A stretch of 46,580 nucleotides of DNA from assembly GCF_003334255.1 (NCBI RefSeq), contig NZ_QOWU01000043.1; one strand, 5' to 3'. The position numbers and the translations under genes were made by a program. This DNA comes from Escherichia coli. GTDB taxonomy: Bacteria > Pseudomonadota > Gammaproteobacteria > Enterobacterales > Enterobacteriaceae. Under the pieces are notes generated by a model. That model saw only the letters and a program-made list of their open reading frames with translations. It searched no databases and had not been told where the DNA came from. This document shows, piece after piece, positions 43,582 through 44,927 of the stretch; the first letter of the stretch is position 1; every line of letters begins with the position of its first letter.

Positions 43582-44538
43582 ATGTCATACCCGCTTTTTG
43601 ACAAAGACGAACACTGGCATAAGCCAGAGCAGGCGTTTCTCACCGATGACCACCGGACCATTCTGCGCTTCGCCGTAGAGGCGCTAATGTCCGGTAAAGG
43701 AGCGGTGCTGGTGACGCTGGTGGAGATACGCGGCGGCGCGGCGCGCCCGCTCGGGGCGCAGATGGTGGTGCGCGAAGATGGTCGTTACTGCGGTTTTGTC
43801 TCTGGCGGCTGCGTGGAGGCCGCTGCCGCTTTTGAAGCGCTGGAGATGATGGGCTCAGGCCGCGATCGCGAAATTCGCTATGGCGAAGGTTCGCCGTGGT
43901 TTGACATCGTTCTGCCCTGCGGCGGTGGGATCACGCTGACGCTCCATAAACTACGCTCGGCACAGCCTCTGCTCGCCGTGCTGAACCGCCTGGAACAGAG
44001 AAAACCGGTGGGGCTGCGCTACGATCCGCAAGCACAATCGCTGGTGTGCCTGCCCACGCAAACCCGGACGGGCTGGAATCTCAATGGCTTTGAGGTGGGG
44101 TTCAGGCCATGCGTCAGGCTGATGATTTACGGACGTTCTCTTGAGGCGCAGGCAACCGCGAGTCTTGCAGCAGCCACAGGCTATGACAGCCATATCTTCG
44201 ATCTTTTTCCGGCCTCAGCCAGCGCTCAGATCGATACCGATACGGCGGTCATTTTGCTGTGCCATGATCTCAACCGGGAGCTGCCAGTGTTGCAGGCCGC
44301 GCGAGAAGCAAAACCCTTTTATCTCGGCGCATTGGGCAGCTATCGAACCCACACGTTACGTCTGCAAAAGCTCCACGAGCTGGGATGGTCCAGGGAGGAA
44401 ACAACGCAAATCCGGGCACCCGTCGGGATATTCCCCAAAGCCCGGGATGCGCATACTCTGGCACTCTCCGTGCTGGCAGAAGTCGCCTCTGTACGTCTCC
44501 ATCAGGAGGAGGATTCATGCCTGCCCCCGTCGTCCTGA
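43582..44538 (+). CDS. paoD: XdhC-family molybdenum cofactor insertion chaperone PaoD
   Basis: 318-aa ORF immediately after paoC. Confidence 0.9.
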   Translation: MSYPLFDKDEHWHKPEQAFLTDDHRTILRFAVEALMSGKGAVLVTLVEIRGGAARPLGAQMVVREDGRYCGFVSGGCVEAAAAFEALEMMGSGRDREIRYGEGSPWFDIVLPCGGGITLTLHKLRSAQPLLAVLNRLEQRKPVGLRYDPQAQSLVCLPTQTRTGWNLNGFEVGFRPCVRLMIYGRSLEAQATASLAAATGYDSHIFDLFPASASAQIDTDTAVILLCHDLNRELPVLQAAREAKPFYLGALGSYRTHTLRLQKLHELGWSREETTQIRAPVGIFPKARDAHTLALSVLAEVASVRLHQEEDSCLPPSS

Positions 44539-44927
44539 TCCTTGCGGCCGGGCGTGGAGAGCGCTTTCTCGCCTCCGGGGGAAATACCCATAAGTGTATC
44601 GGCTGGCGTCAGTCCCCGGAGGTTGCGCCTTATCGCTGGCCATTTGAAGAAAACGGGAGAACTTTCGACCTTGCGATTGAACCGCAGATTACGACTAATG
44701 ATCTGCGTCTGATGTTGAGGCTGGCTCTTGCCGGCGGAGGAATAAAAATTGCCACTCAGGAAACTTTCAGGCCATATATTGAAAGCGGTAAGCTTGTATC
44801 GCTGCTTGATGACTTTCTTCCACAATTTCCGGGCTTCTATCTGTATTTCCCACAGCGTCGCAATATTGCACCAAAGCTCCGCGCCCTGATTGACTACGTC
44901 AAAGAATGGCGGCAGCAATTGGCTTAA
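44517..44927 (+). pseudogene. yagP: yagP: LysR-family regulator C-terminal fragment with a short unrelated nucleotidyltransferase-like N-terminus
   Basis: 136-codon frame starting at an ATG with strong AGGAGGAGG SD, overlapping the paoD 3' end; residues after about 25 look like the end of a LysR substrate-binding domain; no LysR HTH present. Confidence 0.75.

Follow-up and report, generated by a model that had tools for sequence, protein, structure and literature searches.

The yagP frame of Escherichia coli, very probably a chimeric pseudogene left by two successive losses downstream of paoD

In E. coli, MocA (YgfJ), which is encoded at an unlinked position, synthesizes the cytosine dinucleotide cofactor of PaoABC and delivers it to PaoD, the product of the last gene of the operon (PMC3909100). 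Co-transcribed xdhC-mocA pairs have been described as pucA-pucB in B. subtilis, on pAO1 of Arthrobacter and in an operon of Oligotropha carboxidovorans (PMC2997495). The present analysis concerns yagP, the frame that follows paoD in a 46,580-nucleotide stretch of E. coli DNA, which is referred to as the window. Comparison with other genomes makes it very probable that yagP is a chimeric pseudogene, which arose through two successive losses downstream of paoD.

The window shows the gene run of E. coli (yahG ... bet, rcl, ecp, paoABCD) and, over the stretch tested, is 100% identical to strain G1/2. The translation of the yagP frame starts MPAPVVLILAAGRGERFLASGGNTHKCIGWRQ, also given as MPAPVVLILAAGRGERFLASGGNTHKCIGWRQSPEV... 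with WRQQLA at the C-terminus, and corresponds to a product of 15.5 kDa with a computed pI of 9.46. The stop codon of paoD (TGA, 44536-44538) is situated downstream of the yagP ATG at 44517, and the two frames overlap by 22 nt. The Shine-Dalgarno sequence of yagP is conserved in Pluralibacter, where it reads CAGGAGGAGGCTTCATG; AGGAGGAGG is the original translational-coupling signal of a nucleotidyltransferase gene that has been lost from this position. A preliminary description of this DNA had recorded the frame, its Shine-Dalgarno sequence, the overlap with paoD and a switch of similarity within the frame, and all four were located again in the same places; the switch proved to be sharp. A terminator scan between the yagP stop and the tRNA fragment downstream yielded matches at shuffle level, none of them convincing. 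The coordinates of the features, together with the classes of genomes discussed below, are collected in Table 1.

Table 1. Features of the yagP region in the window and genome classes at this locus
Feature	Position	Strand	Remarks
paoD, XdhC-family molybdenum cofactor insertion chaperone, last functional gene of paoABCD	43582..44538	+	
Shine-Dalgarno sequence AGGAGGAGG	44504..44512	+	4 nt 5' of the yagP ATG
yagP chimeric frame, 136 codons and stop	44517..44927	+	ORF translation
5' stub of the paoD-linked MobA/MocA-like nucleotidyltransferase gene, 77 nt	44517..44593	+	encodes MPAPVVLILAAGRGERFLASGGNT(HK), glycine-rich nucleotide-binding start
Deletion junction CATAA, single copy kept	44589..44593	+	three-way alignment
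3' end of a LysR-family regulator gene, 339 nt, codons 188-299 and stop	44589..44927	+	WP_000687183.1 type
tRNA-Thr (thrW), 3' 46 nt	45054..45099	-	att-site copy at the island edge, outside the fusion event
Fusion state			2669 of 5426 genomes
Undeleted left junction			913 of 5426 genomes
5' half of LysR2 present			388 of 5426 genomes

The larger part of the frame is derived from a LysR-type gene. The only Pfam match in the 136 residues is LysR_substrate (PF03466), which covers residues 24-131 and positions 103-207 of the 209 in the model (E = 3e-13); the effector-binding domain is incomplete, with only the second part of the model represented. NCBIfam LysR models likewise align to yagP from about position 186 onward only. 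The winged-helix DNA-binding domain is missing, the counterpart of residues 1-187 of the intact gene having been deleted. This intact gene (WP_000687183.1, 299 aa), which is found in 388 E. coli genomes, with O157:H7, O55:H7, O145 and others among them, lies divergent from an SDR oxidoreductase gene and is designated LysR2 here, as another LysR gene is present in the same interval. In contrast to YagP, which lacks residues 1-187, its product comprises an N-terminal DNA-binding region and the whole effector domain, and NCBIfam models cover residues 1-294. Residues 25-136 of YagP equal residues 188-299 of the intact protein with three amino-acid differences, and 331 of the 339 nucleotides from codon 188 are identical to the O157 gene of strain 319. 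In megablast comparison, O157-type genomes match the window from 44589 onward only, inside the intact LysR gene. This alignment, together with a spacing to thrW equal to that in strain KV7, shows descent of the C-terminal part of yagP from the intact LysR gene at the same chromosomal position. The preliminary description had recognised a LysR C-terminal fragment, and this is correct for the last 112 residues; the full-length LysR gene for which it suggested a search is present in some E. coli, and an intact gene that corresponds to the whole yagP frame was seen in no genome.

The first 24-26 codons come from a different gene. The N-terminus of YagP contains the nucleotide-binding motif hhhLAAGxGxRF/M ... 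K, and its sequence VVLILAAGRGERF...HK aligns column for column with the paoD-linked homologues of other bacteria and with IITAAGLSSRM of E. coli MocA; A10, A11, G12 and R16 are invariant among the stub, these homologues and MocA. Over codons 1-26, identity to the N-termini of the closer full-length homologues amounts to 81-88%, and tblastn aligns residues 1-27 at 81-89% identity. In a scan for relatives of PaoD, with one genome taken per species, a full-length frame of 180-199 aa was found directly 3' of the paoD homologue, with an overlapping start, in at least 26 enterobacterial loci outside E. coli. Pluralibacter, Leclercia, Enterobacter, Silvania, Siccibacter, Franconibacter, Cedecea, Kosakonia, Atlantibacter and Citrobacter are among the genera represented. 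The full-length frames begin M..PVV(L/I)ILAAG(R/K)GERFLASGG.THKLDALL.GK.VL.HV..., and 11 loci of the Rhizobium/Agrobacterium group also have a frame after the paoD homologue, with a more divergent start motif. The Pluralibacter homologue is named 'nucleotidyltransferase family protein' in the source and contains NTP_transf_3 (PF12804, MobA-like NTP transferase) at residues 6-145 (E = 2.6e-23). Among NCBIfam models, TIGR03310 (MocA/YgfJ) fits it best, with 84.7 bits against a cut-off of 186 bits, and the nearest relative of solved structure is a MobA/MocA-related protein from mycobacteria.

Such a short glycine-rich peptide could in principle resemble a nucleotidyltransferase by chance. NTP_transf_3 is missing from the Pfam result for the 136-aa frame, and residues 1-26 share just 35% identity with E. 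coli MocA over the motif. The silence of Pfam on this part is explained by its length, because 24-26 residues only are available. However, a profile built from 26 paoD-linked nucleotidyltransferases outside E. coli gives the yagP frame 32.9 bits (E = 3e-9), whereas the runner-up among the 1093 six-frame ORFs of the window reaches 6.0 bits. The DNA of the stub is 85-88% identical to the Pluralibacter gene over nt 1-77/81. The stub furthermore keeps the orthologous position, in which the start overlaps the end of the XdhC-family chaperone gene exactly as in the full-length genes. The probability of a chance match is negligible in view of these data, which establish homology between codons 1-26 of yagP and the nucleotidyltransferases. 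The MobA/MocA-like N-terminus proposed in the preliminary description is thereby borne out, and the comparison that it recommended with the paoD-downstream region of relatives uncovers a full-length nucleotidyltransferase gene at the exact position in other Enterobacteriaceae.

The remainder of this gene was not found in E. coli. When the Pluralibacter gene was used as the blastn query, none of the 5426 E. coli genomes contained it beyond nt 81, the match extending over nt 1-81 in undeleted and nt 1-77 in fused genomes. An inversion or a displaced 3' half was considered and is ruled out by this blastn result together with a tblastn search, in which the Pluralibacter protein matched the undeleted loci and the window over residues 1-27 only. 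The sequence past nt 81 in undeleted E. coli is unrelated to the nucleotidyltransferase gene. The 130 bp that undeleted E. coli has after the stub shared only chance matches of 12-13 nt with the DNA 3' of the gene in relatives, and the alpha/beta hydrolase downstream in Pluralibacter has no homology to its E. coli counterpart.

The state of the locus in E. coli was obtained by megablast of positions 44300-45150 against 5426 complete genomes, with the matches split into classes. In the second class, the match to the window ends at 44593, and paoD is followed by a 49-codon frame, MPAPVVLILAAGRGERFLASGGNTHKL-REKIC..., and a convergent MFS transporter gene. The window up to 44593 thus corresponds to the paoD-downstream region of undeleted E. 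coli, and from 44589 onward it corresponds to the LysR interior. A three-way alignment places the end of the first match at ...GGAAATACCCATAA and the beginning of the second at CATAAGTGTATCGG..., and the pentamer CATAA belongs to both. Its two copies are situated at nt 73-77 of the stub (codons 25-26) and at codons 188-189 of LysR2, and the fusion is in frame because the pentamer encodes His-Lys in both genes when these are read in frame 0. The copies are separated by 6,134 bp in O157 strain 319, where the contiguous order is paoD, stub, MFS, alpha/beta hydrolase, LysR1, ykgR fragment, hypothetical gene, SDR and LysR2. The fused genomes lack ~6.1 kb, i.e., the MFS transporter, the alpha/beta hydrolase, the other LysR gene, the SDR gene and the 5' part of LysR2. 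A direct repeat at both ends, retention of one copy and collinear flanks together give the yagP junction the signature of a microhomology-mediated deletion. Because the 5-bp repeat is present at both ends, the mechanism would be illegitimate, microhomology-mediated recombination or replication slippage, without an integrase.

The preliminary description had held it plausible that the fusion arose during rearrangement at the adjacent tRNA-Thr island integration site. ARAGORN finds no complete tRNA in the window, and an island, with the thrW fragment at its edge, starts 127 nt downstream of the end of the yagP frame. The paoD-thrW interval is, moreover, highly variable between strains, with several truncations and island insertions, and both observations are in line with a by-product of island integration or excision. 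This origin is nevertheless very improbable, since strain 442/2 carries the identical fusion in an island-free setting, where thrW is intact and precedes proA, proB and phoE. A tRNA-Thr is likewise annotated 3' of the fusion in LB19b. On the side facing thrW, the LysR gene keeps the collinear arrangement of undeleted genomes; the 3' end of LysR2 is unaltered, and the spacer between the LysR stop and thrW is 126 nt, unchanged with respect to strain KV7, in which LysR is intact. A test for integrase involvement places the breakpoints inside the stub and LysR2 and not at the tRNA att core. Both lie in coding sequence, ~0.5 kb or more from the core, and share CATAA alone. The suggested link to the island is contradicted by the fusion beside an intact, island-free thrW and by a junction that consists of a 5-bp microhomology within coding regions.

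Truncation of the nucleotidyltransferase gene and its fusion to LysR2 had also been presented as a single event. They were separate events, because none of the 5426 E. coli genomes holds more than 81 nt of the gene, including those with an intact LysR2; the genomes that keep the 6.1 kb and the intact LysR gene are already cut after 81 nt. We note that the two left breakpoints, nt 77 and nt 81, are just 4 bp apart. This spacing may be due to chance or to a fragile AT-rich spot (CATAAATTA) in a stub of 65% G+C.

The following course of events is very probable, with the order of the two losses taken from parsimony. The pao cluster once contained a fifth gene, encoding a MobA-like nucleotidyltransferase of 180-199 aa, with a start that overlapped the paoD stop. 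The E. coli lineage lost this gene past nt 81 (..His-Lys-Leu), which left the stub and unrelated DNA in a layout of stub, convergent MFS gene, alpha/beta hydrolase, LysR gene, SDR gene and LysR2 beside thrW. In the second step, ~6.1 kb was lost between the two CATAA pentamers, and the stub and LysR2 were joined in phase; the result is seen in about half of the sequenced E. coli, K-12 and this window among them.

A different history can be envisaged, in which the nt-77 fusion and the nt-81 truncation are independent deletions that occurred in different lineages from an ancestor with the full gene. Two events are needed under both scenarios, and neither order makes the close spacing of the left breakpoints, perhaps a sign of a fragile site, any less odd than the other. 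Independent deletions are nonetheless unlikely, as no E. coli genome keeps more of the gene than the 81 nt. The nt-81 cut is common to divergent undeleted lineages, the O157 type and the L001/L003 type, with 93-99% identity in the compared stretch, and over nt 1-77 the stub of the fused window does not differ from the L003 stub. These observations favor the successive losses described above.

The fate of the fused frame can be considered next to its sequence variation. yagP retains a strong Shine-Dalgarno sequence and a start coupled to paoD, so that it may well be part of the paoABCD transcript and be translated. The encoded protein would combine the first strand-loop of a Rossmann-like fold with the second half of a LysR effector domain. 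Neither nucleotidyltransferase nor LysR activity is expected, because ~13% of the nucleotidyltransferase (24-26 of ~184 residues) and half of the effector domain are left and the DNA-binding domain is missing. Among nine fused alleles, 13 nonsynonymous and 6 synonymous polymorphisms were counted, which corresponds to a pN/pS of 0.70, a value that, coming from 19 polymorphic sites, is alone compatible with weak constraint. The adjacent 3' end of paoD has a pN/pS of 0.36. Among the nonsynonymous changes, G21E, E15K and A19T fall in the nucleotide-binding motif, and G74E falls in the LysR part. The pN/pS of ~0.7 points to decay, and yagP is most likely an ordinary pseudogene of fairly recent origin that drifts neutrally and decays. 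Decay is also reflected in an additional 1-bp deletion in the O157 stub, in independent truncations of LysR2 and in the pseudogene flag of RefSeq.

It is quite unlikely that yagP is instead a functional small protein coupled to paoD, whose effector half binds a ligand or interferes with a full-length LysR regulator. The strong Shine-Dalgarno sequence and the ATG that overlaps paoD would suit such a protein. The 136-codon frame is also open in all nine sampled alleles, most members of a 502-member sequence cluster read as 136 aa, and the fusion occurs in about half of E. coli genomes. A proteomics table (PMC3342100) further lists a 15.4-kDa 'yagP protein', identified by a MALDI peptide-mass match. 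This match is weak, however, with three peptides and a score of 43, and the listed pI of 5.65 does not fit the value computed for the yagP frame. An open frame across 411 nt is expected of a recent neutral fusion, and the partial effector model without a helix-turn-helix, together with the pN/pS and the radical changes mentioned above, also argues against function. In other strains, the LysR gene is cut otherwise or replaced, at different points in 88COLEC and EECO1006 and by an AbiE/Dpt island in MINF_7C. Retention of the 15.5-kDa YagP for a ligand-binding or dominant-negative role, or of translation of the stub as an aid to expression of the overlapping 3' end of paoD, is thus hardly to be expected, and decay remains the preferred reading.

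The long-standing y-gene yagP is accordingly best viewed as the probable scar of two losses and not as a LysR-like regulator. The fusion itself is a well-resolved case of a commonplace event and raises no major question. The annotation of this frame has so far followed its LysR part. The RefSeq pseudogene, annotated in G1/2 at 44589-44927 as 'LysR substrate-binding domain-containing protein, incomplete, missing N-terminus', coincides exactly with the LysR-derived part, and the 5' stub is unannotated; numerous deposits of the 136-aa frame bear the names 'hypothetical protein' or 'LysR family regulator'. The source names inspected refer neither to the 5' 72-77 nt of nucleotidyltransferase origin nor to the junction or the 6.1-kb deletion. 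A literature search, in which almost all matches to 'yagP' were unrelated uses, found no description of the stub, the junction or the deletion. The LysR pseudogene is thus known, and the nucleotidyltransferase origin of the first 24-26 codons, the junction and the lost fifth pao gene are absent from the annotations and papers searched.

The enterobacterial pao cluster ancestrally had its own MocA-like nucleotidyltransferase gene beside paoD. This gene is lost in every E. coli genome examined, in which the PaoABC cofactor depends on the unlinked MocA (YgfJ). For molybdoenzyme maturation this offers a natural comparison, namely whether PaoABC is the specific client of the enzymes encoded next to paoD in Pluralibacter, Leclercia and Enterobacter. 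The paoD-linked proteins and MocA have PF12804 in common, although with an identity of ~21% (E = 5e-4), and on this sequence evidence the former form a subfamily separate from MocA. The stub shares with MocA and PF12804 the nucleotide-binding start (L/T)AAGxxxR(F/M), and 24-26 codons of the gene survive in the window. paoD and the nucleotidyltransferase gene of Pluralibacter, Leclercia, Enterobacter and others have the same arrangement as the xdhC-mocA pairs. This is in contrast to E. coli, where the second gene of the pair is reduced to a stub.

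The left end of the 6.1-kb deletion that created the yagP fusion lies at nt 73-77 of the nucleotidyltransferase stub downstream of paoD, only 4 bp from the earlier breakpoint after nt 81, where the nucleotidyltransferase gene is cut throughout the species. This closeness could reflect a fragile site or coincidence. The 81-nt stub retained in undeleted E. coli carries an extra 1-bp deletion in O157 strain 319, which reads ACCATAA in place of ACCCATAA; because of this deletion, its stub frame stops after 26 codons.

Independent truncations in other E. coli have also affected LysR2, the LysR gene beside thrW whose 3' end contributes the C-terminal part of yagP. 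It remains in strain 88COLEC from nt 480 and is joined directly to an SDR fragment, in strain EECO1006 it is cut at another point, and in strain MINF_7C its place is taken by an island with AbiE toxin-antitoxin and Dpt restriction genes. We also note that the island content at tRNA-Thr in the window (45054-46332) is unlike that expected there from K-12.

Elsewhere in the window, the ecpC frame is open over 842 codons with a terminal stop only; the record of strain G1/2, which is 100% identical over the yagP region, lists ecpC as a pseudogene interrupted by an internal stop. The small-membrane-protein gene ykgR is complete, and a second, partial copy is found within the 6.1-kb segment of undeleted genomes, suggesting that the gene was duplicated locally long ago. 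The locations of these and other features are summarized in the table.

Locations of features in the window and at comparison loci (L-numbers)
Feature	Location	Strand	Remark
Two adjacent breakpoints	window 44589-44598; L003 (undeleted E. coli) 4290-4300		
1-bp deletion in stub, O157 strain 319	L097 ~1802	reverse complement	
PaoD comparison, Pluralibacter gergoviae	L004 1793-4957		
ecpC	window 32976-35501		
ykgR, complete	window 29066-29167		
ykgR, partial	L002 1702-1770		
Aldo/keto reductase fragment (short), pseudogene	window 22273-22401		between rclC and helix-turn-helix gene; annotation of matching record
Altered LysR2	L084 2242-2921; L085 1680-2731; L099		
LysR/alpha/beta hydrolase/MFS cassette	L029 4958-8581; L037; L060; L003 4420-7896		Frateuria defendens; Pseudoxanthomonas (L037, L060); E. 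coli
tRNA-Thr, 3' 46 nt	window 45054-45099	-	island edge
IS3-family transposase fragment	window 45338-45547		in island
AraC-family regulator gene	window 45589-46332	-	in island

The PaoD chaperones of E. coli and Pluralibacter gergoviae share 89% identity, compared with best-segment identities of 58-75% for the next-best enterobacterial relatives in the same list; on these sequence identities, the pao cluster may have been transferred between the two lineages. In undeleted E. coli the stub is followed by a cassette of LysR, alpha/beta hydrolase and MFS transporter genes, and this cassette likewise adjoins paoD in the Xanthomonadales Frateuria defendens and Pseudoxanthomonas. No nucleotidyltransferase gene was detected at the latter loci, and the orientation of the cassette in these genera differs from that in E. 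coli. The amino-acid identity between the E. coli and Xanthomonadales cassettes is 63% for the MFS transporter, ~41% for the hydrolase and ~42% for LysR, and the shared neighborhood hints at a functional link of the cassette to the pao cluster or at joint transfer of the two.
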